This document shows, piece by piece, positions 1-49,401 of a stretch of 64,000 bases of DNA; position 1 is the first letter of the stretch, and each line of letters begins with the position of its first letter. The stretch spans positions 868,001 through 932,000 of the forward strand of contig OZ287071.1 in assembly GCA_965645245.1 (NCBI GenBank). Reading direction: 5' to 3'. Both the position numbers and the translations under genes were made by a program. The notes beneath the pieces are model-generated. The model was not told where the DNA came from. It ran no database searches and saw only the letters and a program-made list of their open reading frames with translations. This DNA is from Massalongia carnosa (lineage: Eukaryota).

Positions 1-1023
1 GAGCTTGTCTCGTTTGCGGAATTACAAAAGACGTTGGGCCAGTTAGGATTCAATGGTGGTAGCACCTTGTTGCGCCTGAGCTTTAGACTTACAGAAATTC
101 CTCTGGAGGAGGCTATGGAAGAAATTGGTAACTATTTTAAAGCTGTTGGGGAGGATGAACCTGAAGGAGCCCACGTTGGAAGCATAACAGTTTCTGAAAG
201 CCTATCGAAACCCTCTCAATTTTCATTGTCAGAGGTCGAGCCAGAATCCTTGGATACTCCGGAGCCTATAAATACTCAAGCGGACGAAGAAATATCTACG
301 ACCCAGCAAACGATTTCGCCCCTTCCATCCGCCAACCAAACAATCAGCGGACCGAACCAACGACCTATCTCCGTTTTCGCCGCACCGACTTCAACAACTC
401 TTCATGCTTCACTTCAACCACATGACGAACGAGACTACGAGCCTACTGTTGATCACGCAAAGTTGCACCAATCCCGCCTTGCGTCCTCAACCCGTAACAG
501 ACGCCTACCCACCGATGCAGAAATTGCTGCACAACAGGAGGTTCAAAAACAGAAAGCGGCAGACGTTAAAGAAGTCAAAATAAAGATTCGTTTTCCAGAT
601 CAGACGCAAGTAGTCAGTACTTTTTCGAATTCAGATACGTCCACTACATTGTATGATTTTGTAATAGGACTTTTGGAGAATGAGAAGGAGCCCTTTTTGC
701 TAAATTTCAGCGCCATGAGTGGACCAAAATCCATCCCAAGGGAAGGCGCGGTAAAATTGATTGGGGGATTAGGGATGGCTGGGGGAGTGTTGGTAAATTT
801 CATATGGGACGAAGGGGCAAGTTTTGAGGCGCGGGGAGCTAACGTGCTGAAAGAAGAGTTTCGGGAAAAGGCTAAGGAGATCGAAGTTAAGGAGGTGAAG
901 GTAATCGAGGTTGATGACAAACAGGATAAGGGTTCTGCGGTAGGCAAAGAGAAAGATAGCGAGGGTAAAGGAAAGGGAAAGGGAGGCTTGCCAAAGTGGT
1001 TGAAGCTGCCAGGGAAGAAATGA
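1..1023 (+). CDS. UBX-domain protein, TUG/ASPSCR1/Ubx4-like (5' partial, open from base 1)
   Basis: Frame is open from position 1 (ELVSFAELQKTLGQLGFNGGSTLLRLSF). UBX motif KIRFPDQTQVVSTF...LYDFV, a DYEPTVDHAKLHQSRL segment and a C-terminal PKWLKLPGKK typical of this family. Confidence 0.75.
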   Translation, partial: ELVSFAELQKTLGQLGFNGGSTLLRLSFRLTEIPLEEAMEEIGNYFKAVGEDEPEGAHVGSITVSESLSKPSQFSLSEVEPESLDTPEPINTQADEEISTTQQTISPLPSANQTISGPNQRPISVFAAPTSTTLHASLQPHDERDYEPTVDHAKLHQSRLASSTRNRRLPTDAEIAAQQEVQKQKAADVKEVKIKIRFPDQTQVVSTFSNSDTSTTLYDFVIGLLENEKEPFLLNFSAMSGPKSIPREGAVKLIGGLGMAGGVLVNFIWDEGASFEARGANVLKEEFREKAKEIEVKEVKVIEVDDKQDKGSAVGKEKDSEGKGKGKGGLPKWLKLPGKK

Positions 1024-1384
1024 ATCCGGCTTTGCTGCATGGTTAGAAGGCTGAAGAAAGGGTCTGTAAGATGAATGATGAGCATGAGCCAATGATAAGA
1101 CGCTAAAACCACACTGGGATGCGAGCATCTGCACGGCGTCTATAGAGCATCATTGGATTACCGCTGCAGATATGTCAATGGAGCTGTTCAGCTAACGAGG
1201 CTCATGAGCGCCACGCAGCGGCTAGCTTTTCAAGAGGCTTCTGAGTAGCAGTACATGGTCCTTGACAGACAATTTTTCATCTCAGCTCGCACTAACTGTA
1301 ATCCCAACCCTTTCTCTTCCCAGCGTTCCCGCGTCATTCGTCTCTCCGCCCAAGCTTAACTCGTCCGTGCAAGCCTTCCTCCAC

Positions 1385-2265
1385 CTAATGACCCGCACGC
1401 CTTGACTCAGCAATGACGCCTTGCAGCTCGTCAACCTTTCGCTTCGCGCGGCCGAACGTGCCGAGCTATATATCACCACCACCGCAATTAGCATATGAGC
1501 TTTACCAATCCACCTCAATGCCCTTGATATGTTGGTATTTGTAAAAACGGGAAAAAAGCATAGATATCTTCCGAATCCAAGCGCATTCGATGAAACGTGG
1601 TCGTATGGAAAAAGCTAAGACTGTCGAAAGGGATACGTACTCGCTTCTTGGCCAGTTTCCGTGCGCGCTTGTCTTTGCTATTACGGAGGAGTTCGATGAC
1701 GCGACGTTCGTAGGGGGCGAGTCTATATAATCAAAATAATGATTTAGCTTCTGGAGTCTAGAGTGGATGATAGTAAGGGTGCATTGCGGAATGAACCAAA
1801 GGAGAATTTCCAAGCGGGCCTAAAATGTACAGGACATCCTCGATAGACAAAGCCATATACATTTCACCTTCGTAAGCCAATAAGGACGATTAAGGTGCTC
1901 CAGGTAATATTGAAGTCAAATCCCGGCACTTAGGCGGAGAAAGCAACTCTTTATGACCAATGGCATCACAAAAAAGAAGCAACATACCCAGAAACCTCCT
2001 TTACGATCTCTCTTACAAACGCTGTGCGTTTGCTTAAATGACCTTTGGTGCGCGAGATACGCGGCTTAGCTTCGCGAGACGTAGTTTTCTACAGCAAAGC
2101 GCAATGGAAACACCATGGTGGATTAGTATATCTTATTCTTCGTGATATCAAGTGTGTTTTGAACTCTGTAGAGCACCGAGATTGGCGTTGTAATGGACAG
2201 GAACGGGAACGTACATGGCCACGGTTCAAGCCAACGGCAATGCCACTGCGCTCCTTGATGGCCAT
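1385..2265 (-). CDS. RPL36: 60S ribosomal protein L36 (4 exons: 2265-2215, 2088-1988, 1722-1641, 1465-1385)
   Basis: Hand-spliced at GT-AG sites: [104 protein letters not shown]. All exon phases are consistent. Not in the ORF track. Confidence 0.95.
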
Positions 2266-3869
2266 CGTGGATGCTTTTGTTGATGATGACGCTGGTAGGA
2301 AACGATTGTGGATTTAGGTTTATGTGCTGAAGGCTAGTTTAGATTAGGCAAGGGCGGGAAATGTAGGGTTACGGGTTAGCGAACCCTAATAAATAGATTG
2401 AAGGACTCTCCCGTTTCAAGAAGTTGTGTAAAGTTATCCAAAAGTTCCATAACCAGATCTTCGAGAGAAATGATGAATATTTAAGTTACCCCAACATTTT
2501 TATTGAATATATACAATGAGGTTGTCTAGTAAATGCGCTTGAAAATACTTGTTATCGGTCTATCTTCTGCCAGTCCATTTGCTACCGAGTATTTTGCACG
2601 GCCTCATCTAACTCATTGGGGTATTTAAGGTACGTTATGGTGGTCAGAGAATCACGTGGAATTGCAGCTTGTTCATAGCTAATGCAAATCTTGGGAAGAG
2701 ACAACAGTTTGAATGCAACGTACTCTGTGCATAGCGATGATTACATCCGAATGAACTGCCGGAGCTCATTGCAGAGGCAAGTCTTAAGCTGCAGAGAGGA
2801 TATGAAACAGCCAGCGCACCAAAGGAAGTGTACCAACGGATATGGATAGTTATTTAGGGGTTGAGGTGAGTTTAGTAAATAGGAATTGGTGAGCTAGATG
2901 GTGCCCATGACTCAGAAAGGCAGGCGCATTGAATGACACGGACGATTAGTGATTCTGGGCCTTGGACTTCCAACGCACAAGAAAAATGGAACAGGTTCTA
3001 GGGGATTCCAAAGGGTGCATGAAGCAGACTCTGCCCGTCGAGATCTTTTCGACATTTCCGTGGTTCTGGAAGTATAAGTACAGGCGCAAAGGTCATTAAT
3101 AATCTTAAATGCACCAGAGGTCAACGAAAGCGACGATCATTGCACGATAAGGCCTCTCAAGGTTGAAGCTAAGGCGCATTGCATAGAAAACGCAGTAACA
3201 GAGGAAGCTGTCAAGAATGCGTGGGGAGCTTTCTCTTAACCGGGTGGCATGTGCCAGTATTGGCTACATCGGATGAGTGCAATTTGCAGGTTCATTGGGC
3301 CATCTCAGATCAAGCGATGCATGGCGCAATTGCTCGGGATCGGCTGCTGGCCGCAGTGGGGAAGAGTAAAGCCACTGGAGGCTGCCCTGCGTGGCATGGC
3401 ATGGCCTACGTTCTCCAGGTCGATCAAATGATTGCGGTACGGCCATATATGGCAGTCGGACGAACCTGAAAACCCTTTGGGAGGAGGAATGCGTTTAGAA
3501 CATGTTCTAGACTCGTCTTAGAGGAGACAAAGGTTTGGAGCTCTCTTCAAAGCTTCCCATTCACAGTCGACCGATGAAGTATGTACCCAAATCCTAGCCC
3601 CCGAGTTGTTGTGACTCCGCGAATCCGCAATCTGTACTTTGTACTCGGTCGAGTTCCAAATCTACCTGTCTTGGGCACTGAGAATGTTATACTAAATAAC
3701 GCTAATATTGGCTTATTCAAGATCCAGTATCCAAATTACCCATTTAAACTTTAGTCTTAAGTCGTAATCTAATAAGATCAGCCAGAAAGGTGTGCAAGAA
3801 TCTCGGGTTGGGCAGGAGAACATGAGGTAAAATTGCCTCAGAACAAATGTAGTTCAGTCGTACCGAATG

Positions 3870-3929
3870 CAGAGTAGTATACAGAGTAGTATACAGAGTA
3901 GTATACAGAGTAGTATACAGAGTATACAG
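3870..3929. repeat. 12-bp tandem repeat (CAGAGTAGTATA)x4 plus a truncated copy
   Basis: Directly visible; it produces the spurious YTTL repeat in ORF 3744..4115. Confidence 0.9.
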
Positions 3930-4872
3930 TAAAAAGTGAAAAGTGCCTAGAAATAGACTAGGCAGATCTTGGGCAATGCACATTGTACGATATGGAGGGG
4001 AGACGTTTGAAGCACTTTGGACTAAGGGAGTCTGGGCCCAGAAAAAGACCCTGGGATCAATGCTGCAAGAGAGAGAACCGGCAGAACCGAGAGAACCGAG
4101 AGAGCAAGCAAGCAAGAAAGAGAGCCAATCTTATTCCGTCTCCGTTTCTTGTCTTCGCAAAACATATCTAAAAAAGGAAGAGAACTTTAGTTGACAGCAG
4201 CGGGCAATCTTCTGCCACTTTTCACATCTCTCTTCAAGTCTCACTTCCATGACTTGCATTCAACTACTGTCTTCGCGTCTTGTCAACTCCTGGTATTCCC
4301 CCTGACCCCGTCGATCCTCGCAAAGTTGCCTTCTTGAAGGAACCACCCATCCGGCATGACGTGATTCACAGCAACTAATGCCCGCGGAAACCGAACCTGC
4401 AATAATGAAGGCGCTCTTACATAACGTTACCTAACCAATCCTATTAACCTCGTCGATTAGGCACTCTTCGTGTTTCTCATCAATCCTCACAAGACCACCA
4501 CTACTACAACCCCCCCCCCCCCCCTTTAAGCTTAGTTGTATAAATATAGACGCATCTCGCCAATCTGTGGCTTGAATCCACGATCGGTTTCACAGACAGC
4601 GACCACGGCTGTTCTTACGCACCTGCGCATCTGTCTCCTGGCTCGTTTTTCCCTTCGTATGTGGATGGTTCGGCTCTTCAAGAATTCTGAAACTAAATGA
4701 CATTGCCTGGAAGATTTTACGCAGCCAACAAATCATATCGCAGCATTTTCTCCATACGGATACACCTTCCATGTCTTCTTTCGCCAAGCGTCAAGTTCTG
4801 CGAATATCAAAAATATCACTATTCCTAATCTATGCATAAACCTAGAATTTTTGCAACGACGGTCTTTAAGCC

Positions 4873-7691
4873 ATGGAAGACGCCGTGGGAAAGAATGGGC
4901 TAGAGGGGATGATGGAGAGGACATCACTGTGCGTGTCAGGCCCCACGCCTGGGATTGCGTCGCACGACGGTGATGTGGGCTTTCGCGAAAGGGTTCAGCA
5001 GCATTATTCGGTATCAGAGAACAACGCGGTGGAGCAACTTGTAATTTTGAAAGCCAAGCTCATCACAGCAGCGACGTACGATTTTTGGACCCTACTGATG
5101 GAGGGCATGACGAGTATCACACAGGCTCAGTACGGCTTCGTGACAAAGCGAATTTTAGTCGATGACCAGAATTCCGCGGTAGAGATGCCACCCATAGGGG
5201 AACCTGGATCCTGTCTTCTTGGAGTCGCTTTCTACTACAACGATGGGAACCAAATTACGAATCTCCATAGAGACTACAAATATCTAGCATACGGCGCTCC
5301 TTGTCATAATATGAAACATGACAAGGTCTTCTTGATCCCCAATGGCCTGCCTGAGTTTGTCACAAATAACCCAAACGAATTTCCTTTCCCGACAGAAGCA
5401 TATCTTGGGGTGCCTCTTTTTGCAGATGGCAAATGCTTTGCACATTTTGGTATGATGTGGACGGTACAAGGGCTCAAGAAATTGAAATTAGGTTGGGCTT
5501 TTGTGGAGATGCTATTGCACTCCCTCGAAGACCTTATTTTACAGCGGTTAGTGGACGGCCAAAGCTTCGCGAGGGGGGTGGAAAACAATAAATTAGCCAA
5601 GGTTATTCCTCAAGAAGCCGTTACGGCAGCGCAGTCTTTGAAACCATATGCTCGAAGCTTGTCGCACGAACTTAGAACGCCTATGCAAGGAGTGGTCGGG
5701 ATGTTAGATGTTATGCATGCAACAGTTCAGGAGTCTCTCGAAGGACAATCCGATGCCGTGGTACGGAAAGTGCTCAAAACGTTGCGAGAGAATATTGAAG
5801 TAGTTCAAGGTGAGTTCTAATTGTTCCGAAAATTAGGTGATCCTTCAATGACCCTTCCATTAGATAGCTCACGAAGGGCTGTAGAGGCAGCTGATAATGT
5901 CGTTCATGCATACGATCTGAATATGCAGGTCCCAGATACTCCCATACCTGCTGATGATGACGAAAACATGGATATACAATCAGCCGTCTCTTCAGAAAGC
6001 CGACGGCCAAGCTTACTTCTGGACGGTAATAGTATCTTTTTCAGGCGGAACAAAAGGCAGCGGACCAGCTCCGCCGAATGGGACGTTGCTCCTGCTACCA
6101 AGCACCGTGTCGTTCAGTCTACAACCCCAACCCCCCATCGAGATGTCTCCCCGCATACAGCCTCTTTACGGACTGCGGTGGAAGAAAGCGATAGCATCAC
6201 CAGCGGTATGCAGGACGTCTTGCAGTCTGGAAAAAAAGCCAAAGGTACCAGGCGACAGAGTGCAGCAGTCTTAGACTCGGAACTTACTTTTGACACATAT
6301 GAGCCCGAGGCGGTGGTTACCCCTGGTCTCAGGCACACAAAGGTCCGCGACCTTTTACGGCTTATCGTCAACGAGTCATTGAGGGTAGGGGGAAGGCCAG
6401 ATTCAGCTGTGGCCGAAGATACCGATGGTGGAGAGATCATCGAAGTAAGAACAAGGAACTCCAAGGGCGAAACCTCCAGCAAAATCATTGATTGGTCGGT
6501 TGACTCACTTGTGCCGGAAACGATATTTGGTAAGTCTCTTATGAAATCATTTGAAGACTGGGCTGACAGACCTGATATCTAGTCGACGAGCGCGACCTGG
6601 CAAAGCTAGTCTCTTGCGTTTTCCTTAATGCTGTTAAGTTTACCGAGTGCGGGAAAATATCGCTCAGAGCGGCTTTGAGCAACACCTCGCGTCGTTTCAT
6701 CATTATCAACGTTATTGATACTGGACCTGGTATACCACCCGCGTTCATGCCGAACTTGTTTAAAGCTTTCTCTCGTGAGGATGATTCCTTGACTCGACAG
6801 AAAGAGGGTCTCGGCTTAGGGTTGCTAGTTGCCAAAGGTCTGGCTCGCAGAATAGGCGGAGAACTCGTGTGTGTCCGATCGGACATAGCTGGTCCGCGGC
6901 AGGGGACTGAATTTGAGCTTCGTGTTCCTATCTCTACATTTGATACAAATAGTAGAACAGGCACACCAGCATTATTAAATACACCTTCCCGATTTTCCGC
7001 AGAAGACTCAGCGATTTCGAATTCAAGAGGGAGGCAGACATCATCGATGAACCGCCGGGGCACATCTCGCCGAAATTTTGATTCCCAGACCCCTGATCCA
7101 TCGTCTTTTGCAAAAGTTACGTCGCCTCTCGTTCAGTCATCGCCTTCCCATCGGAACAGCCTTTCTCAGAGTCAGCCGTCCTCAAATCGACGCCCCTCTA
7201 TAAAGAATGTGGTCACTTTCGACCGCAATCTAGCTAAAAAGTATCCTCTCACATTTCTTGTAGCGGAAGACAACAAACTTAACAGAAAACTCCTTGTCAA
7301 CATGCTTTCCAAATTTGGTTACAACGACGTTCATGAAGCGTATGACGGGGCTGAAGCAGTACGGCAGATGAATATTGATCGGGACGTACGAAACGAGAAA
7401 CCCATCGATGTTGTCTTGATGGACCTTTGGATGCCGGGCATGGACGGTTACCAAGCCACAGAAAGGATTCTTGCAATGGAGAAGGAAAAACGCAAGCGTG
7501 GGATACTGAATGAGAAAGACGACGATCAGGCCAGAAGGAAGCGAGGCGTCACCATTTTGGCGGTTAGCGCCGATGTGACAGATTCGGCGTTGGAAAGAGC
7601 GAGAGAGGTCGGAATGGAGGGGTTCTTGACGAAGCCGTACAAGCTACTTGATCTGGAAAGACTTATCATCGAGTATTGCTCAGGCGAGTGA
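4873..7691 (+). CDS. Hybrid sensor histidine kinase (GAF-like - HisKA - HATPase_c - receiver); exons 4873-5809, 5864-6529, 6583-7691
   Basis: H-box SLSHELRTPMQG, N-box FLNAVKFT, G1 VIDTGPGIP, G2 GLGLGL, receiver LVAEDN...VLMDLWMPGMDG...LTKP. Both introns are GT-AG and in phase. Confidence 0.9.
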
Positions 7692-29799: not shown

Positions 29800-30299
29800 A
29801 ACTGTACTTGTATTGATAATCTTTTGCTTTGGAAATGATGCTTTTAGTTGACTTTGATGAAGAAGCAAACATGATACGATGATTTAATGTCGAGGTACGC
29901 AGATGATCTTTACAAGTAAGTCAAACGCGTATTTACTAATTCTTGAAACTGACTAAAAGTACTAGCTTGGGGAAGTCAATGTAATATATCTGTGAATCCA
30001 GAGTATACTTAGATCAATACTCTTTATGTAAATAATCAACTACTCAAATAACCAACCAAACTGTCCTATCACTCTACAGTACCTTGTACTCCGTAATAAG
30101 TACAGTGCACCCTAATTACAATAAGCTGTTTTTTCTAGAGGATCAAATTGTTTCATCGTTATGAACAGATTCGCCAAACGGTATAGTAGATTAGCTGGCT
30201 TACTGATTTATCCTATCAAGCACCGCTTTGTCAACAGTAGTTTTACTAATTTTGTACTAGCTCGCTATTAAATTATGCTTACACTACCAGATCCGTGTC

Positions 30300-30516
30300 A
30301 TATTACCCAACATTACAGCACGGGTCACCTTGGGTAATGATGTGGGTAATAATTACCCAACTTTAATTTTAACGTCCAATATTACCCAACGTTACAGCAC
30401 CATCGCCTTGGGTAATGATGTGGGTAATGGTTACCCAACTTTAAGTTTAACATCCCATATTACCCAACGTTACAGCACCGTCACCTTGGGTAATGATTAC
30501 CCAACTTGAGTTTAAG
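30300..30516. repeat. Left subterminal array: ~78-bp unit x ~3 built from inverted TTACCCAA/TTGGGTAA motifs
   Basis: Units start ATATTACCCAAC(A/G)TTACAGCAC at ~30300, ~30379 and ~30457; the third unit is internally deleted. Confidence 0.9.
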
Positions 30517-30765
30517 TCAATAATATCGTACCCGAGCCAGCTTATCTCCTCCCTCCCCTCTCCTTACGAGAGGTTAGTAAGCAAACATTGACAAGCGCTA
30601 TTGTTTTGTTTGTTAATTTTCTTTTAATTTCCCAGATCCTGTCTTGAAGAAAATATTCTCCTTGCTTTCTCATCCTTCCATCTCTCGCAACCTCTTCCCT
30701 CTTCACAACCTCTTCTATCTTCCATCTCTTTCATCATTTGTTTCTATCTTTACACTCAATCAACA

Positions 30766-32433
30766 ATGGCTCCTCCCAATATTCATAAGCGAAAAGCAGT
30801 AAGATCTATTCCGACCAGGTCATATCGTAATTGCCTTCCGCATCAAAAACATCTGGCTCTCACCTGCTTGGTATCTACACTGGCAATTTGCGCCAATGCA
30901 TGTCTCTGTCTCTTAGTCCGTACAGACTATGCTTCTACGATATGATATAAATAATATTACATGTGGCCGGTGCAGATACCAAGCAGGTGGTGTTTCTGAT
31001 GCGGTAGGAAATCATAACATGACCTAACGGTTTGTTCAGCCATTATCATATATTGATCTTTGAATATTTAGACTCATGCTGGCTTGAACAATCTAGAGCT
31101 TTCAAATACGGCACCTTCAATGCGAAATGGAGACCCTTCGGCTTCTTTGGAGACTGGTACATCCGCATGGGACCTAGCCCTGGCAAGATTCATTTCCATG
31201 TTGATATAAGTAATTTACCATTCTAATTAAATTGTTAAAGGCACTTCTCTGGGTAATGCGCCGTCATCGTCGTCTTCAAATAACCCGCATCCTCGATCAG
31301 CAACCGACTCTACGCGATTACCGCTTGCTATGCAAAGTCCTGTATTTACATCAGAGCAAGCCGCTATCTTTCGATCGATTCAACGGGAAGATCTTTTGGA
31401 TCATGACCTTGTCGAAACTTTTATCAAGGTATGGCATGAACTTGTTGCCTCTCTTAATATGTATGTAATCGCACACGTCAATGTCTCATGTTTTATTTAG
31501 AACATGCTTTTTAATGATACATATTAGAGTTCCACGGGGTACCAACTAGCATCTATATACAAGCTTCAGTTGCAAAATAGGAAGGAGATCACACGGATTA
31601 AAAAGGAAGCCAAATCTACAAAATATGCCACAGAGCTGCGGGCGGTTTGTGTAATCTTTCAGAATAATACTTGTGGCTCATGTTTGCAGATAATCAGACC
31701 CATAATACGCCGACGCTTAACTTTGGAACGATACAAAGAAAGCACATGGAGCGATCCCAAGCAAGTATTAGTACGTTATCGTTAGGCTCGTTTGGTATTC
31801 CATAGCTAATACTGTCGTTAAGACCTCATTACGAGGTCATTTTCCTTCCGACCTAATACTTCTAGACAATGCTGTCGCTTTAGTGGGGAAAGTCCGCATA
31901 GAGAAAAAGGCTAAACTAAAGGAACGACTCCTCAAGTGTCAAGATGTTGTCGATAAACCTCTTGCGGATTTTGCCGAATGCCTAAGGTCAGAAGTGGACT
32001 CGGAGACCAAACATGTGGACAATGATATGTCTTTGTGGAAAGCAGCAGCTTGTTGGGTAGGCTTCCCTTCATATTGTTGTCTTGCATCTTGTTTATTGCA
32101 AAAGCTAATATCAATGAATGATAGAGATATGTTGTTCTTGAGCAGATGGAAAAGAAAGAAGGAAGTTTCTAGTTCCAGGTTGATAAGATTTTGATGAATA
32201 TAGACGCAGACTGGTACGTCAAACTGAATAACTCTTATCTTTTCTGTGGTAGAGTTTCTTCATGAACTAATTTGAACAGGGACTTTTATACTCCTGACGT
32301 ATTAGAGTATGGTCTTGCGTCTCTAAGTGACGGCTTAACTTTAGCTCAAAATCCCACTCTCGATACTACTTTAGATTCGAATAATACAACACCGCTGGCA
32401 GAGGATGAAGATAACGATAATTCTACTGAATAA
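30766..32433 (+). pseudogene. Element-borne gene of unknown function (~340 aa, 8-9 exons) with one in-frame TAG at 32170-32172
   Basis: Exons 30766-~30818, 30976-31003 (tentative), 31072-31156, 31241-31428, 31528-31644, 31690-31770, 31823-32056, 32125-32213, 32280-32433 join in phase at GT-AG sites. Confidence 0.7.
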
Positions 32434-32760
32434 GGCGAGTTGAGTTGTTCTAGGCTAGGAATTGATCCACTGGACGGTTGTTTCTTGATCGGTCGGACTG
32501 AGCTCAAAGAAAGGAAGGGGGGAAGGGCCGGGCAGACATAGACTGTACAGGTTTTATATATGAAGATAATGTGATCTGGGTATCATTGTCTATACGAGAA
32601 AGCCTAATCATTAGATATCCTCGAGACAGATTAAATACAAGTTTTTTCTTCGATTTTGATTCAGGATGCAGATTTGGCGGCGGCGCCAGTGAGCCTGTAA
32701 TATTGAGTCGCAAGCTCCAAACTAAGTTTAATGCATCATGAGTCATCATTATACGTTAAA

Positions 32761-32912
32761 TGAGGTAATGGTTACCCGATTGTTGGGTAATGGTTACCCA
32801 ATTATGCTCCTCATCATTATGTAACGTTATCCCCTCATGGTGGTAAAACATTGATAGAAAACATTACCCAACGTTACATAAGGATACAACCGTAACCATT
32901 AGGTAACGTTAT
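32761..32912. repeat. Right subterminal repeats of the CACTA-ended element
   Basis: GGTAATGGTTACCC twice, TTGGGTAA, ATTACCCAACGTTACA and GTAACGTTAT twice; same motif family as the left array. Confidence 0.8.
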
Positions 32913-33474
32913 GCAGATATGGTAGTGTAGTATGCTTTCTAGCTCACCAAAAAAACTAAACGATATCGGAATAGAGAAGTTATCGTCTAAGAAAATAATC
33001 GATTCCACGTAGTCAAATCGCTATAAGCAGATTATCAAGATCGCTATAGCCAGGGTGCACTGTAGATGCGATACAGATTGATTCATTGCAGAATATTAAC
33101 CTTGAGCGGGATGGTAGAGCTGATCGGGAATTCTTATATCTCCTTATTAAAATTCGCTTTCAGTTGCGGGGACAAGACTGGCTAACCATGACGAGAAATT
33201 TTGGTGCTTGGGCTAGAAGTGCGTATGATGGTTCAATGTGCATTGATGATGATGATGTATTCATACTCCGATATGACACCGGCCGTAGGCCGGCCCATGC
33301 GGGCAAAGCTATCTAAGTTATGTTACATGGAAAACCTTTCACAGGTGTAAAAACCATATCCCATGATAACCGTCCGATGTGACTACGGGTCGACGTCGGG
33401 CGGGAGACGCAGTGCAAAAGACGTGTGGGAACTGTAATGCCTTGTGAAAAGAGAAGAAAGAAAGAAAGGTTCAA

Positions 33475-36400
33475 CTACTGTTGATTGTACAATAATGTTG
33501 ATGCTAGTGAGAACTGATTCAATAAGCCTATTTTCATTAGCCAAGCAGTTAGTATCTTCAGAGTTTTTGATGATTCGGTCAGCTGCTGATAGTCGCTCGT
33601 GCCGGCGGCGCGAAACATCTGTTCTCTATTGTCAATAAGTCTGCAGAACATGATTACATGTTCTGGAGTTTGTCTGTGCCAGCCACATGAGCAGGCCGGT
33701 GAGGTGACGGAGGGCACCCGTCGCTTGTAGAGGAAGTCAGCTAACCCGATTTTGCCAGTGCGGATTTGAGTTGTTAGAGCGCTTTCTGCCTTTTTTAGCT
33801 GCGTGTGTATTTTCAGCCGTTTTTTGCTCAGTGGGACTGATTGTGCTATGGAGGGTTCGATGACGTGATTTTGATATGCGCACCACGAGTCGTTCCAGAC
33901 CTTCATTTGTCGTGCTTTAATTGTTTGCATCTGCTTGTGTCGGGCCGTTGCCGCAACGGTAGCTTCGCGGTGCCACGCCGGGTAGACTTCGAACCATGGT
34001 GGTTGTGCCTTTGGTGGTTGAACTATTTTGAGTCGATCAGTAGGCTTTTGGCCCAGATGTGTTTCAGCTCTCCCGGGGTGGGTTTTTGAAGTCGTTTGCG
34101 ACCTGCCTTGCCTCGAAGTTTTTCAGCTATTTTGTTGCATGCGGAGGAGATGATCTTCAATTGGCCTCCGGCTCGGAGCCGGTGCCTTGCCTGTGCTTGT
34201 AGCATGTCGAGATACGTGTCTATGGGCGCTATGAATGTCTCTACTTCTAGTACTGAGATGGGAGTAGCTTTAAAGGCACCGGCTATGGTGCGAAGGCAAT
34301 TGTTTTGCATGACGGAGAGCTTGCTCGTTGACGTTTTTGACTTTTTGACTTCTTTGGGCATGTGCCATACGGTTGACCTATATGTCATGGCCGGACGCAC
34401 CACGGCACTATAAACTTGCCTTGCCTTGGCGAAGGTGGCACCCCAGGTTGATGTGGAAATTTTTGTCAATGCCATGGATTGTTTGACCATTTTCTCTTGC
34501 GTTTTGCGAACGTGCGGTCCCCATTTCAATTTGGTGTCGATTTGTAGGCCCAATACTCTGATGTCCGTTTTTGGTTCAATTTCGGTGCTAGCAATATTGA
34601 TAGATGCAGTCATGTTGAATCTTTTGGGATTTCTGGACAAGTGTATGAGTTCGTACTTCGTCGGAGCAAATACGGATCCGTGCCGTGAAGCCCACGTCTC
34701 ACATTGTCTGTGTATTGCCTCTAGAGTTTTGCAGTTTTCCTCGGTGCTTTTCCATATGCCAAAATGTTTGCATCGTCTACGAATCCTATGGCACTTGTGT
34801 TTTTGCCTGGTCGATCACATATTTCCAATAGATCTGCATTTTAAAATAGGTAAAGAATGGATGACAGGGGAGAGCCCTGCGGGATACCCGTTCTTACCGC
34901 AAACCGCCCGGTGACTTTTCGATTTATTGCTAAAGTGGTGCTTCGATCGCTCAGAAAGCTGTTTAACCAGTCGGTGATCCATTTTGGAATTTTTCTTTTC
35001 CGTAGGTTGTGCGTTAGTCGTTGATGTGATACCGTATCGAACGCGCCGGCGACGTCCATGCTTAGCAGTGTGGCTACTTTGTCTTTTCCCTGTCCCCAAA
35101 TCGTGTGAACCTGTTCAGTTAGCAGTTCCAGTGCTGACTCTGTGGATCTGCCCTTCCTTGCTCCCATCTGTGTGTCGGGTAGGAGCCGGTGTGTTTCCGC
35201 TAGATAGGTTATTTTCGATCCAATGATGAATTCCATAACTTTACTGAGCGTGTTGAGCAGTGCAATTGGTCGGTAGGCTTTCGGCGTGGTATAGTCTCCT
35301 TTGCCTATTTTTTTCAGCGCTAATGTGTTTGCCATTTTGAAAGCCCGCGGGTGGTACGAGTGTGTGACTCACGCCTGAAACAGAGGTGTTAGTAGTTCGA
35401 CAAGTTTTTCGCTGCATGCTTTGAGTATTCTGTTAGATATGCCGTCTGGGCCCGGTGCCTTATCGGACTTGAGCCGACTCAGGGCCGTCGATACTTCTGA
35501 CTTGGTGATAATTATTGGGCAGTGCGGCGATGTAGGATAGAAGGATCCTTCTATGTCGCTTAGGTCGGCCGGTGGTGGTGCGGGAAAGAAGACACCTTTC
35601 AGCATTTCGGCTTTTTGGTCAAACGTGTCTGCTACTCGGTCATTGAATTTTAGCATCGGCATTTTGGATACTTCTCTAGATAGATGACTTTTGTCTTTGG
35701 CCCATTTCGCTAGCCGCCATAGTCCCGGAGGCGTTTCGGTGGCCTTACTGATTTCTTGACGAAAGTTTGTTCTCTTTGCGTTTTGAATGATTTTCTGTTT
35801 TTTATCATTGGATTTCATATAGTTAGACCAGTCCGTTAGGTCTAACGTGCTGGACCATATGCGGCGTAGTTTCCTTGTGGCTTTGGTGGCAATGCTGCAT
35901 TCTTCTGTCCAGAATGGCTTAGCATATTTGCTAGATTTTGCCCATGGAACTGCTTCATTGATGACATTTTGTAGAAACTTTTGAATCGATTCCGTGTACG
36001 CATCAATCTCGGCAGTGGTGCGGGGAGACTCTGGTATAGGGGCGTGTCGTTCGGCCTCCCTTAATTTTTCCAGGTTTAGAAGTTTCCATGCTCTGCGTTT
36101 GATTTTCGGTTGCGGTTCGCTTCCGAGTAGGATGCGGGTTGATATCGGTACGTGATCGGATGATTGATTCAATTCTGGTCTGGACATGCAGTGTTCGAGT
36201 CTTTCGGCTAGATATTCTGACATGAAAACCAAATCTATCGTGCTAGACGTGTTTCTTGCTTCCCATGTTACGGTGCCTTTCGGCAGTGTCAACGAAAGAT
36301 TATGATCATCGATTATTTCTAGTAATTGATCAGCAGCAGCGTGTTGTGTGGGTCTTGAGGGACCATTCCAAAAGGGATGATGCAGGTTGAAATCTCCAAG

Positions 36401-36838
36401 TAGTATGTGATGCGCATCGGCGGTAAGCATGCTCCGAGCCGCCGGTAAGGTCGTGGGACTGTCAGTGGATGAATAGGAGGCGGGAGAGGGGTTATACACA
36501 TTATGGACGTGAATTGTTTCCATAACGCCTTCGGTGTAGGTCTTTATTTTCAAAGTGCACATGTCGGCCGAGGTGAATTCCACCTCCCAGCTGTCAGTGT
36601 CTATTAGGTCGTTGACATAAAAGCACACTCTGGTGTCATCTCCTGGGCGGTATAGGAGGTGAAAGCCGCTTTGATGAGAACTAAGCGATGTGGGGGCGGA
36701 TGGATTGCGCCACGGTTCCTGTATTGCAATAATATCATAGTCCTGGGTGTTTGTGTCTGCTAAGAGGGGTATCATAGTACTCACTCTGTCATTTCTGACA
36801 TTATACTGCAATATAGAGAGGGATTTTGTGTCCCTCAT
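33475..36838 (-). pseudogene. LINE ORF2 (apurinic endonuclease - reverse transcriptase - zinc knuckle)
   Basis: APE: LQYNV, IAIQEPW, GDFNLHH, TIDL, SDH. RT: KAPGPDGI, YRPIALLNTL, LSMDVAGAFD, GIPQGSPLS, GFVDD. CSCG..QTPEHVIMFC. Stops at 35369 and 34841; -1 frameshifts near 34750 and 34025. Confidence 0.92.
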
Positions 36839-38322
36839 AGGATTTCCATCGTTTCGGCCGCTGTGTTCGATGTGAACTGAGTTCCTGCCGTTAATGCTAC
36901 GGAATCTGCACGAGGCTTACCCAGCACTGGTTTTGCTAAGCTCTTTACCATATTTTCAGGATTCATGATGCCTATATTAGCCCAGGTGGGTGCGTCGTCT
37001 CCCCGATGAGGGCCCGGGGGTGTGCCGGATGAGGGCGTAGCGTTGTGTATTTTTCTTCTCTTGCCGTTTACTATCTTCCACGTTGACGGAATTTCGTCCG
37101 TTTGTGTGACTGTGGGTGTCGACTCTCGTTGAAGTTGAAATTGAAATGAGGGCGGTTGTAATTCGATTGCATAGAGGGGGGCGCGGTTTTGCATTGCTAT
37201 TTCAGTTTTTCGCTTTTCAGCTTTTCAGACTTTGCATGCTGTAGACCATGCTTCGTGTCCCTTCTCTCCGCATACGACGCAACGGCGGTATTGCCCCGTT
37301 GTCTCCAGATTGCATTCTTTGCTTTGATGTCCACCGGCGCAGTGACCACAGGCGGCGGGATTGCGGCATGATCTACCGATGTGTCCGTATTTTTGGCAGT
37401 TGAAGCATTGAGTCATGGTGCAACCACGTGTAAAGCGCTCGCAGTCCTTTATTTCGTAGCTTTCCATTAGGCCCTCGGTAATGAGCCGGTTAGCCATCTC
37501 GGCGGTGGCGACCTCTATATGAAGCGTCGAGTACGCTTTTTTCTCTCTGATGGCCTTGATTGACCAGGCTATTTTAACGATCTTCAAGTTAGGGTGCAGG
37601 CGTGCGTTAGCGGCCTGAAGGTAGGTGATGGCTGTTGATTGATTGGCCACTTTGATGTTTTCCACCCTGATTCCATTCGCTCTTACGGTGAAGGTGCGGG
37701 TGTGCACCGCAGCTGAGGCGGCCACCATGCGGGTCCAATCGGTCTTCTCCTGCAGGGTCTTCTTTGCTTCCAATGACTCTGCGTGAATCCTGATGTCGCC
37801 GTTTAACAAACGCGACACTCCCCTTATTCCTTCAGCTCCATTTTGTAGTGTTTCTACCAACTCCTTGGTTGGCATTAGCTTCATTTTTTCCTTGTCCGCA
37901 TCCTCCGTGATGTGAACGGTGATTTCCCGGGCACGTCGCGCTTCTCTTGGTGTGGGTGCTTTGTCTTTGCGGGCCTGTTGAGGCTTGATGTTTTGGTTCT
38001 TTGGGGGTGCGGGCTCATCTCGGCCTTGCCCTGTGGCAGCAGCGGCATAGCTGCGAGGAGTGGTCTCATTGCGCTCTATGCGTGTCAATGATTGTTGGAT
38101 TGCCTGTAATGTGTCACCTATGTTGATGGGAGTTTCTGCAACTTTGTCATCGACTAGATTTTGCGCTTGCAAAATTTCCGCTGAGTTTCTCAGCAACTGC
38201 AACGCCTCCGGGTCACCAACAGTGCCCACTCGATTAAGATACTCCTTGATCTTTACGTGCAAACCTTTCCTCCTTTCGCTGTGCGCTCTCGAGAGCGCGT
38301 TTGATTGTTCGAGTGCAGTCAT
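36835..38322 (-). pseudogene. LINE ORF1 (gag-like nucleic-acid-binding protein)
   Basis: Starts MTALEQSN at 38322; knuckles CFNCQKYGHIGRSC, CGHCAGGHQSKEC, CVVCGEKGHEAWSTAC. A single in-frame TGA at 37225-37227, after which the frame continues into ORF 36835..37194. Confidence 0.88.
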
Positions 38323-38925
38323 TTTCCCCTTATCAATGTGCATTGATAATTCATCACGGACAAGTAATGGGACTAAAATGAAGCTATTAAATGTCTTGAT
38401 CAAAGTTAATTATATCTGCATTTCAGTTTGAAGAACGGGTCAACGCGAGAAACTCATGCCAAAAATGTTAGGTATGTGTTTATTGCGCTGCACCCGATAA
38501 CTACTCTGTATTTAAGAGATCTTATACTTCTTTATCGGATTTCTTTTCCCTTCGCTTCTCTTTCTCCGACGAATGATATATGAAAGCTTCACCCCATTTT
38601 TTACTCGTACGCCCCTATAGTTTCAAGTATTTGACTCGTTAAGACTCTGGGTTTCTGACAGCAATCTGCCAAGAGTCAACCTGTCGTATCTAACGTTGTT
38701 ATCCTTACAAAAAACCTGTTTCTGATATTTTCTCTGCGTTAGATAATCTCGAAAAGAAGTACTATAATGTGTACGAGCAGTTGCATATGCTTGAAACATC
38801 TAATGACGACTTATTTTGATATCAGGAGAAATCCAGAAATCCTTTTAACGTTTATGTAATGTCTCAGTCCTTGAAGCCCTTCGGGTACATAGGAACAATG
38901 AAACGAATGTACGCATTAAAAAAAG

Positions 38926-47280: not shown

Positions 47281-47384
47281 TCTATAGATGTACAAAGACG
47301 TTTATATCAATAACAAAACTCGAAACTAATGAATCTCGTTTGGCGTTGTGCTAAGCATCGTTTTCGCTTACTAGTGCCTGCCCA

Positions 47385-49233
47385 ACGGCTCAAAGTCCAA
47401 AACGGTTCAAAGACCGAATTAACTATGCATGTTCAATTTGACTACGAAAAATCTTCCACCATTTGGTCCTTTCAACCTCCCATTTTTTACGTGCTCGGAG
47501 GAAGATATTGGCCTCACGAAACAGTCCTTTCCAGAGCTTCTTTTCGGCGTTGTCGATGACCTGTTGCTTTTCAATGCGGCCGCTTTAGCTCGGTCCAAGG
47601 CCTTCTGTGCCTTTTCCACTCCATCTTCATGTCGTTTGGTGACTTTAGCACGTACATCTCGAACGGTGATGACCCCACCTGACTGAGCAACAGTTCCAGC
47701 AAGCTTTTTACGCGCTGCCTTAGCAAATGAGGCTCTGGCTGAGGTCAATAAGTCCCTTGCAGCCAATTGCTGAGCATGAGCGCTAGCCATAGCACCTTTG
47801 AAAAAGCGATCGACATGCAACTTATAATTTCCGTCGATAGCATCATTTGTCTGCATGCTTCTTTGAAGTTTAGTGCCAAAGATGATGACCTCAGTGGAAG
47901 TACGAGGTGTTCTGGCCAATAATGGGGCCGATGGTGGGGGTGGAGGGGTAGTCGGCCTTTGACGACTTTGCGCCTCGATTTTCGAGATGACCACATTCGG
48001 ATTATAAGGCACTAGTCCTGTGTTTCTGAATGCAGCTAAAATCGTCGATTTGGTGAATGTTTTGAGGCGCATATCCTGAAAAACCGACAAAAAGTCGATC
48101 TTGTTGAACTCCCCTCCTCCGGCACGAATAGCCTCATCAGCATGATAGTGTTTAAAAGGCTGAAAGCATCCAATGTCCAGTGGTTGGGTCAAATGAGTGG
48201 AATGAGCAGGTAATCCGAACAATTCGATGTGCTCGCTCTGTGCATACTCGAAAAATTCATACGTCATATGAGATCCATATCCGTCCAAAATCAACAACCT
48301 CCATGCACCAATTTGCCCTTTTGCACTATGTTTATCAAATGTTTCAACCAATCAATAGCGAGATCATCATTCGAATAACCAGTTGAACTGACGGCGAAAA
48401 GAATGTCATCATCCAAATCATTTTCCAGGGCCCATTTCTCCTTTGATTTGTACGCCAGGAAGTATGATCATGGGGGGAATATCCCTTCCTCCACCACTAA
48501 TACTCTCCACCGAGGTGATGTAGTCTCTGTTGTCTGGATCCGTCATCAAAAGAGGCTTATGAGAATGAGTCGAAATCACCCAATGAGCTCTTCCACAGCC
48601 AATTCGAAAGCCCGTTTCATCCATGTTCCAGGTGTCCTCGTCCACGATTCCCCTCAATTCTCGAAGGACCTTGTACTGCTCAAAATGCTTCATCATACTC
48701 TCCGAATCGTGTGAATGTTTACGCTCAACAGCGAGGGGTTTTTGTTTACGTTTGAAGTACTCCGGATGACGTTTTAAAAACCGTCTGGTCCACATGGCGC
48801 TTACGGTAGGAAGTGGAGTGTCGGTTTGATCACGATCAATTTGTCCAACTAATGCTCGACCGAGCAGGTAATTAGCAGCTCCACGAACCATCGAGAGCTT
48901 AGCTGATTGTTCCATATGATCCAATCGCTCAATATAAGCACAAATAGCTTTTTCTTGTGCATCTGTAAGTGCTTTGTTGCTTGATGAACGAGTTGATTTG
49001 GAAGCCCCTCCATTGAGTCTTCGACGAAGTGTCCTCGAATCGACGTGAAATTTTCGAGCGACAGCGCTGGCACTAGAATCATCACTACTGTTATACGCGC
49101 TGATGGCCTCATCAAGACGATTTTCAGAGTCCCAGAACGAATCAGACATGGTGGTGTGGAATGGGCACGCGTTTGGTGAAGGATGAAATAAATGGTTAAT
49201 TTGGTCTTTGAACCGTCTTGGACTTTGAGCCGT
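47385..49233 (-). mobile_element. Fot1/pogo-like (Tc1/mariner superfamily) DNA transposon, 1849 bp, frameshifted transposase
   Basis: 39-bp TIRs ACGGCTCAAAGTCCAA(A/G)ACGGTTCAAAGACC(G/A)AATTAAC (37/39 identical), TA at 49234-49235. Transposase from ATG 49149: HTH/CENP-B-like N-terminus, NMDETG, LILDGYGSH, QPLDIGCF. Confidence 0.93.
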
Positions 49234-49401
49234 TAGGCACTAGTACAGTAAGCGAAAACGATTACTGGTGGTGTGGCACGATTAGACAGAAGTTCGCCGA
49301 ATCTAGCTTGCGTAGTTTTAGGCTTCCTAAGCTCACGCGTTGCTTGCAGTTAGATAGTTTTCTCTCTTAACCTCAAAATAAAATCATTAACAGCAACCAA
49401 T

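Follow-up and report, generated by a model that had tools for sequence, protein, structure and literature searches.

Positions 30282-32927 of a 64,000-nt stretch of contig OZ287071.1 of Massalongia carnosa (GCA_965645245.1, positions 868,001 to 932,000; the whole stretch is referred to as the window) hold a 2646-bp element that starts with CACTACCA, finishes with TGGTAGTG and is bordered directly by TA on both sides. Its terminal inverted repeat covers 31 nt including the TA with 74% complementarity, the outermost 8 nt being perfect. Just inside the ends, a 78-nt unit is repeated at 30325-30480 (91%), families of 18-27-nt motifs are present on both sides, and the element contains 16 instances of GGGTAA or its complement, of which 11 fall within the first 216 nt, four within the last ~160 nt and one between. 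Of the 17 matches to TTGGGTAATG found across the window with at most one mismatch, 12 lie inside the element, whereas shuffled controls gave a mean of 4.16 and none of 100 reached 17. From left to right, the left end and its repeats are followed by a pyrimidine-rich leader (71% pyrimidine, against 52% for the whole element), the first exon of a gene, the remainder of that gene (here the accessory gene) and the right end. No transposase was found in any open reading frame (ORF) of the element, and no second copy of it in the window (a search with a 16-nt end and up to 3 mismatches gave one match).

An earlier note, made from the sequence alone, had described CACTA-type ends with imperfect terminal inverted repeats of ~30 bp and flanking TA, dense repeats at both ends, a promoter-like pyrimidine-rich leader, one multi-exon gene and no transposase ORF. 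All of this is borne out, except that the gene, although it has the several exons claimed, is a pseudogene in the window copy. Here, we report that the element is a multi-copy, recently mobile DNA transposon, and that it very probably belongs to a two-gene family of cut-and-paste transposons in filamentous ascomycetes, as a non-autonomous copy with an internal deletion.

Empty site, copies and mobility

Mobility was assessed by comparing the contigs of public runs X1-X5, among which the label 'lichen metagenome' occurs, with the window. In run X3, whose source study is distinct from that of X1, X2 and X4, one contig (2120 nt, single-copy depth) connects 30279 to 32928, skipping 2648 bases with two letters that fit both sides. 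This contig is an exact empty site with a single TA, so the element measures 2646 bp and its target-site duplication is TA; the 2-bp duplication claimed in the earlier note thus stands, and a longer one (TATGCT to either side, shifted by 1 and 3 nt) is ruled out. Because the site is polymorphic for presence and absence of the element, the insertion is recent. Summed contig depth is 2520-5371 within the element against 419.8 in the flank for X1, and 281-666 against 25.8 for X3, giving ratios of ~6-13 overall and ~11-13 in X3, although X3 lacks this insertion; being sums over all contigs rather than copy numbers, these figures are read solely as 'several copies'. Contigs of single-copy depth stop ~29 nt inside both element ends, and the right end continues into differing sequences just past the TA (three contigs behind 32930 in X3 and two behind 32929 in X4). 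The ends are therefore not single-copy, given the raised depth and the differing right-hand flanks.

In some other copies of the element, 8 additional bases follow 30594 (X3, with loose ends there in X1), and in X5 variant copies have 126 and 115 bases, within 30486-30613 and 32246-32362, replaced by 35 and 13 letters. Both kinds of copy are subfamily variants.

Relatives in metagenome contigs and the family transposase

Relatives were sought in metagenome_contigs with an alignment of the conserved core of the accessory protein, and 7 of 422 pattern matches encode relatives of the accessory gene (L001-L007). Element ends are reached in three of the seven loci (L001, L003 and L006), and the other four show none. 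TA followed by CACTACCA stands at all seven ends examined, namely both ends of the window element, of L001 and of L003, and the right end of L006. The subterminal motifs vary by lineage, being of TTGGGTAAT type in the window and of GATAA/GTTGGTAA type in L001 and L003, while the 8-nt terminus is constant; this combination would fit a conserved cleavage site joined to a fast-evolving binding module. The leader before the accessory gene is of the same kind in L003 (76% pyrimidine) and L001 (78%).

In L003, minus-strand ORFs at 850-2556 and 2528-4126, opposite the accessory gene, are joined by one GTACGT...CAG intron into a protein of ~1080 aa. The two genes are divergent, with the transposase ATG at 4102 (minus) and the accessory ATG at 4634 (plus), and of the ~530 bp that separate them, the part next to the accessory gene is pyrimidine-rich. 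L003 also adjoins a HET-domain gene, a neighbour that points to a filamentous ascomycete, given the distribution of HET domains. L001 aligns to L003 at 615-806, 4288-4320, 4366-5953 and 6148-6300, which correspond to the ends, the intergenic leader and the accessory gene, and is without ~807-4287, the transposase gene. By this alignment L001 is a transposase-less derivative of an L003-like element, with the same layout as the window element. In L004, only 2225-2934 matches L003 (98.6%) and the upstream 2.2 kb (1-2224) has no match; either the accessory gene region has been truncated or rearranged in this copy, or the contig is chimeric.

The L003 transposase aligns end to end with proteins P0014-P0016 (1109-1166 aa) at 38-39% identity. 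The alignment contains an N-terminal C-x2-C...H...H finger (C2H2-like) and, in the core, the motifs LWNDGMSGV, GDNPAAS, PCRVC [C(2)C], KLHQLAH [H(3)H] and TAE.NEA.NK, in that order. The arrangement of C(2)C with H(3)H defines CMC-type transposases (Yuan and Wessler, as cited in PMC4592977 and PMC12730594), and by these motifs the L003 protein, in a relative of the window element, would be a CMC-type transposase. The Pfam family Transposase_21 matches all four proteins (L003 and P0014-P0016) at E 5e-4 to 2e-3 in the same profile region. The nearest ESM Atlas clusters to the transposase core carry Plavaka or Transposase_21; Plavaka is found in 100% and 99% of the members of two of them (score 0.95; 182 and 177 of 256 features), taken as a lead only. 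The Pfam Plavaka family itself has no match in the four proteins at E <= 1, and a profile search of a 5.8-billion protein set with transposase alignment A4 returned only P0014 itself. Catalytic residues are assigned by motif only, because profile and structure evidence is below threshold.

The accessory gene and its surroundings

The gene model comprises 8 exons and 7 GT..AG introns (45-273 nt), is frame-consistent over 326 codons (Table 1), and follows the spliced homolog P0001, a database protein of 273 aa whose sequence continues uninterrupted across the intron positions. That P0001, P0003 and P0005 read across these positions suggests that the RNA is spliced in relatives. Exon ends are conserved among L001, L002 and L003. 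At the nonsense codon in exon 7, position 32171 is G instead of A in all depth of runs X1, X3, X4 and X5, and the tryptophan encoded there is conserved in P0001, P0002, P0003 and P0005. The window copy is thus a pseudogene, with TGG changed to TAG at a conserved tryptophan, and since other copies read TGG it is a damaged copy of a gene that is intact elsewhere. No coding indels are listed for the majority copies of the runs, the listed indels being intronic or outside the coding region. Relative to the majority in X1, the window copy has A for G at 11 and T for C at 7 of 37 listed changes. Repeat-induced point mutation was considered as their source and rejected, since the indices are not of that kind (TpA/ApT 0.86; (CpA+TpG)/(ApC+GpT) 1.18) and the context is also unfit (CpA/TpG at 5 of 9 G-to-A and 1 of 7 C-to-T sites); the changes amount to a plain excess of G:C-to-A:T transitions.

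Intron 1 is unusually long (273 nt) and holds a 24-nt hairpin with 92% complementarity (30861-30884/30966-30989, 81-nt loop); judged by eye, its counterpart in L003 seems far shorter.

No Pfam family, including the plant Ptta/En/Spm family, matches the accessory protein at E <= 1 (searched with P0001 and P0002), a result compatible with remote homology. An AlphaFold2 (AF2) model of the protein (pLDDT, the per-residue confidence measure, 69.5) consists entirely of helices, some of them long, with a disordered N-terminus that carries a KRK motif. Foldseek with this model against the PDB gave 0 matches at E <= 0.001. In a wide structure search with VIA, no match exceeded Z 6.2, a value inside the noise stated for helical models; the same holds for several small modules of three-helix or winged-helix type that score Z ~5 on residues ~112-180.

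Table 1. Features of the window element and of related metagenome loci.
Feature	Coordinates	Strand	Remarks
TA target-site duplication, left copy	30280..30281	.	single TA kept in the X3 empty-site contig
Left terminal inverted repeat, begins CACTACCA	30282..30310	+	8-nt terminus common to L001, L003 and L006
Left subterminal repeats	30299..30513	.	78-nt unit ~2.7x; ATTACCCAAC / TTGGGTAAT motifs in both orientations
Pyrimidine-rich leader or promoter of accessory gene	30541..30765	+	71% C+T
Exon 1 (MAPPNIHKRKA)	30766..30798	+	L003: MSPPPRIFNKRKS then GTATGT, 4634-4672; L001: PPRIFKRK
Exon 2	31072..31156	+	frame-consistent GT..AG model, without homolog support
Exon 3	31241..31428	+	end ..FIK conserved in L001, L002 and L003
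Exon 4	31528..31644	+	end ..LRA conserved
Exon 5 (IIRPIIRRRL...)	31690..31770	+	homolog-supported
Exon 6, best-conserved core (VGKVR.E.KAKLK...LW.AAA.W)	31823..32056	+	71% identity to P0001
Exon 7, holds in-frame TAG	32125..32213	+	P0001-guided gene model
TAG nonsense codon private to the window copy	32170..32172	+	other copies G at 32171 = TGG (W)
Exon 8, stop TAA 32431-32433	32280..32433	+	P0001-guided gene model
Right subterminal repeats	32760..32898	.	GGTAATGGTTACCC and AACGTTAC motifs
Right terminal inverted repeat, ends TGGTAGTG	32899..32927	-	
TA target-site duplication, right copy	32928..32929	.	
L001 element	483-2677 (2195 bp)		TA-CACTACCAAG...TTTGGTAGTG-TA
L003 element	617-6298 (5682 bp)		TA-CACTACCAAGG...CCTTGGTAGTG-TA
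L006	right end only		flank differs from that of L003

Other features of the window are listed here for completeness. A perfect 13-nt inverted repeat (TACAGTGCACCCT / AGGGTGCACTGTA at 30101-30113 and 33052-33064) brackets the element. It was considered as the Tc1-like outer repeat of a host element and rejected because depth shows the left part to be single-copy; the repeat is probably either fortuitous or an ancient remnant. To the right of the element, 32986-33243 shows ~3x flank depth in X1 with loose ends at 32985 in X1 and X5, and one X3 contig connects 30281 to 32986; the segment may represent a rearranged allele or a further repeat of low copy number. The minus strand of 33244-38409 carries a non-LTR retrotransposon whose domains are zf-CCHC and endonuclease-RT. 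Its 3' end (33248-33500) has a summed X1 depth ~740x that of single-copy flank, with many different loose ends at 33243-33253, and resembles a tail of very high copy number that finishes with a (TCA)n run. At 47357-49262 lies a pogo/Fot1-like transposon with a 48-nt inverted repeat (92%) and ends unrelated to CACTACCA; its gene is probably broken, because DDE_1 and HTH_Tnp_Tc5 fall in two separate ORFs.

Interpretation and comparison with known transposons

The full-length form of the family, as seen in L003, has TA-CACTACCA...TGGTAGTG-TA ends, a divergent transposase (~1080 aa) and an intron-rich gene for a protein of ~325 aa. Under the interpretation that we favor, the window element has retained both ends, the subterminal repeats, the leader and the second gene and lost the transposase gene. 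A full-length relative in the same genome would supply transposase in trans, which would bind the shared ends and excise the element at its CAC...GTG termini, and the excised element would be inserted at a TA that becomes duplicated. The transposase with CMC-type motifs belongs to the family, as seen in L003, and a full-length partner in the element's own genome is presumed. The earlier note had proposed just such a non-autonomous CMC-type family member that kept its accessory gene, and L003, with the same ends, the same gene and a CMC-type transposase, and L001, likewise transposase-less, both speak for it; a longer, transposase-bearing element and an empty site were sought, and were found in L003 and in the independent run X3, respectively.

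Several observations weigh against this interpretation. The link to a CMC-type transposase comes from L003 and not from the window's own genome, and the accessory proteins of L003 and of the window are only ~49% identical in the best exon, the two loci sharing no alignable DNA beyond stretches of 27-48 nt. The Transposase_21 scores (17.9-19.7 bits) lie under the Pfam cut-off of 28.6. A HMMER search of PDB chains with the transposase profile gave nothing below E 0.089 and no RAG1, and the AF2 model of the transposase (pLDDT 37.9) is too poor for fold comparison. The depth sums and the substitution ratios given below also have the limits stated with them.

What the second gene does is a separate matter. 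The accessory gene keeps its place, orientation and intron positions in lineages that are only ~70% identical in DNA, and rough ratios of nonsynonymous to synonymous substitution (dN/dS) among the L001, L002, L003 and L007 lineages are 0.18-0.35, values that include some intron read-through and from which one cannot tell whether selection acted in the transposase-less lineages or in the full-length forms ancestral to them. The gene is found in L003 beside the transposase with conserved exon ends, and the conserved exon ends together with these ratios argue that it is not captured cargo; on the evidence of its relatives, therefore, it is native to the transposon family and under constraint. As it is coupled to the transposase, conserved, and retained in two transposase-less elements, a helper role was considered. 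We tentatively propose that its protein may be a transposition helper, analogous to TnpA of En/Spm in role and not in sequence, that acts on the subterminal repeats or on the transposase; that the protein has no recognised DNA-binding or other domain and no structural match counts against this role.

It is somewhat doubtful, but must be taken seriously, that the second gene is instead a passenger without a role in transposition, spared by chance in a deletion, with spread requiring only the two ends. The ends alone generally suffice for non-autonomous elements, the protein has no domain by which a role could be recognised, and the window copy, with its nonsense codon, nevertheless occupies a polymorphic and hence recent site. 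Set against a passenger are the kept place, orientation and introns of the gene, the low dN/dS, the occurrence of the transposase-less, gene-bearing layout twice (window and L001), and the majority copies in the runs, which are intact in their coding exons. In an extension of the helper proposal that we consider improbable, the family would be a stable binary system in which helper and transposase reside on separate elements with the same CACTACCA ends, the helper-only element being kept intact by selection. If this were true, transposition of the whole family would depend on the product of the helper-only element. This protein, which has no known fold and would act on family-specific subterminal repeats, would represent a new class of transposon accessory factor, and current activity of an ESTA-like (RAG1/Transib-related, TA-duplicating) lineage in a lichen-forming ascomycete would be demonstrated here for the first time.

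A Pack-type element carrying a captured host (cellular) gene as cargo, the alternative offered in the earlier note, would account for a complete multi-exon gene with its own leader in a short element that has no transposase. It is now highly improbable, since the same gene stands beside the transposase in the full-length L003 and is also present in L001, L002, L004, L005, L006 and L007, it lies inside or at the end of an element with these termini in the three of seven loci that reach their surroundings (L001, L003 and L006), and a search of 1.84 billion representative proteins gave only 11 relatives of its protein at E <= 0.001. There is similarly very little probability that the element is a non-autonomous relative of Tc1/mariner or pogo with a coincidentally CACTA-like terminus. 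A TA duplication is the hallmark of that group and a pogo/Fot1-like element is present in the same window, but the ends of the latter are unrelated, TACACTACCA occurs nowhere else in the window without mismatch, and the L003 transposase (like P0014-P0016) has no match to DDE_1, DDE_3 or HTH_Tnp_Tc5 at E <= 1 and instead has CMC motifs and a weak likeness to Transposase_21 and Plavaka, so that the family transposase is not of Tc1/mariner type. Least probable of all is membership in the PIF/Harbinger-related PHISTA lineage, whose rust-fungus elements, according to PMC12730594, duplicate TA and encode a further protein without a Myb/SANT domain, since L003 and P0014-P0016 contain no PIF/Harbinger (IS5/PIF-type) transposase domain at E <= 1, and both the termini (CAC...GTG) and the motifs C(2)C and H(3)H agree with the CMCT clade as described there.

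Together with its single TA, the exact empty site documents a recently active DNA transposon in a lichen-associated fungus. Standard annotation would miss or mislabel both family proteins, because the transposase passes no Pfam model and the second protein has no Pfam match. Retention of the second gene in two transposase-less elements makes it possible to test directly whether fungal CMC-type elements require a helper, as En/Spm requires TnpA, and in fungi for which no genetic tools exist, tagging could be done with an active element whose ends are defined. The libraries searched yielded no publication dealing with this family, nor any with CACTA-like elements in lichen fungi.

Maize En/Spm elements have CACTA termini and subterminal repeats that are bound by TnpA, and encode TnpD as well; their dSpm deletion derivatives are mobilised in trans. 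TnpA and TnpD are made from one alternatively spliced transcript, and En/Spm duplicates 3 bp of target. The present family resembles En/Spm in its CACTA-like termini, subterminal repeats, two element-encoded proteins and internally deleted non-autonomous derivatives. It differs in that its duplication is 2 bp, which places it outside the strict EnSpm/CACTA definition, in that its second protein has no Pfam match, and in that its derivative retains the second gene.

Among elements of the CMC group in fungi, Sly1-1 and Sly1-2 of Neurospora crassa (Wang et al., 2015, PMC4592977) are alike in architecture only, with a divergent CMC transposase and a gene of unknown kind, as in L003. Further points in common are a shorter copy with only the second gene (Sly1-2, ~3.6 kb) and presence/absence polymorphism between strains (PMC4592977). 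Sly1-1 differs in its 11.5-kb length and in a duplication of at least 3 nt ('the third nucleotide of TSD1'), and Sly1-2 in that a second end is not demonstrated for it (PMC4592977); for the present element, the two ends and an empty site are known. The Plavaka group (PF18759, CMCT clade, Agaricomycotina) is the one carried by the nearest ESM Atlas clusters of the transposase core, and PlavakaA is described with 2-bp duplications, but its termini are given as TGT..ACA (A) or CATCA..TGATG (B) in PMC12730594, against CACTACCA..TGGTAGTG here. The CMCT clade as a whole is characterised there by 5'-CA..TG-3' termini and duplications of 2-5 bp (PMC12730594), and the present element has CA..TG termini and a duplication of 2 bp.

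The closest described group appears to be ESTA (EnSpm-like, with TA duplications), and the present family would be an ESTA-like or CMCT-type one. ESTA elements are CMC-like transposons of fungi with TA duplications that are already in print (PMC12730594), and the TA duplication alone is therefore not new. The consensus sequences examined (PMC12730594) start with CACCACGG, CACTACGGGG or CACCACCAGAGC and have dense subterminal repeats. From these descriptions, the two share the TA duplication, 5'-CAC(C/T)AC termini (CACTACGGGG/CACCACCAGAGC in ESTA and CACTACCAGATC in the window), dense subterminal repeats and a transposase of EnSpm-like type that bears the motifs C(2)C and H(3-4)H, the likeness being one of termini, duplication, repeats and motifs as described. 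The ESTA families examined measure 7-14 kb and some carry a TET/JBP gene, whereas the present full-length form is 5.7 kb, without TET/JBP and with a different, unnamed second gene. These ESTA families come from rust fungi (Puccinia and Melampsora), together with one labelled _AB, and all are from basidiomycetes, while the present family is ascomycete. On that account, the family described here extends CMC-like, TA-duplicating transposons from the basidiomycete families of the ESTA paper (PMC12730594) to filamentous ascomycetes.

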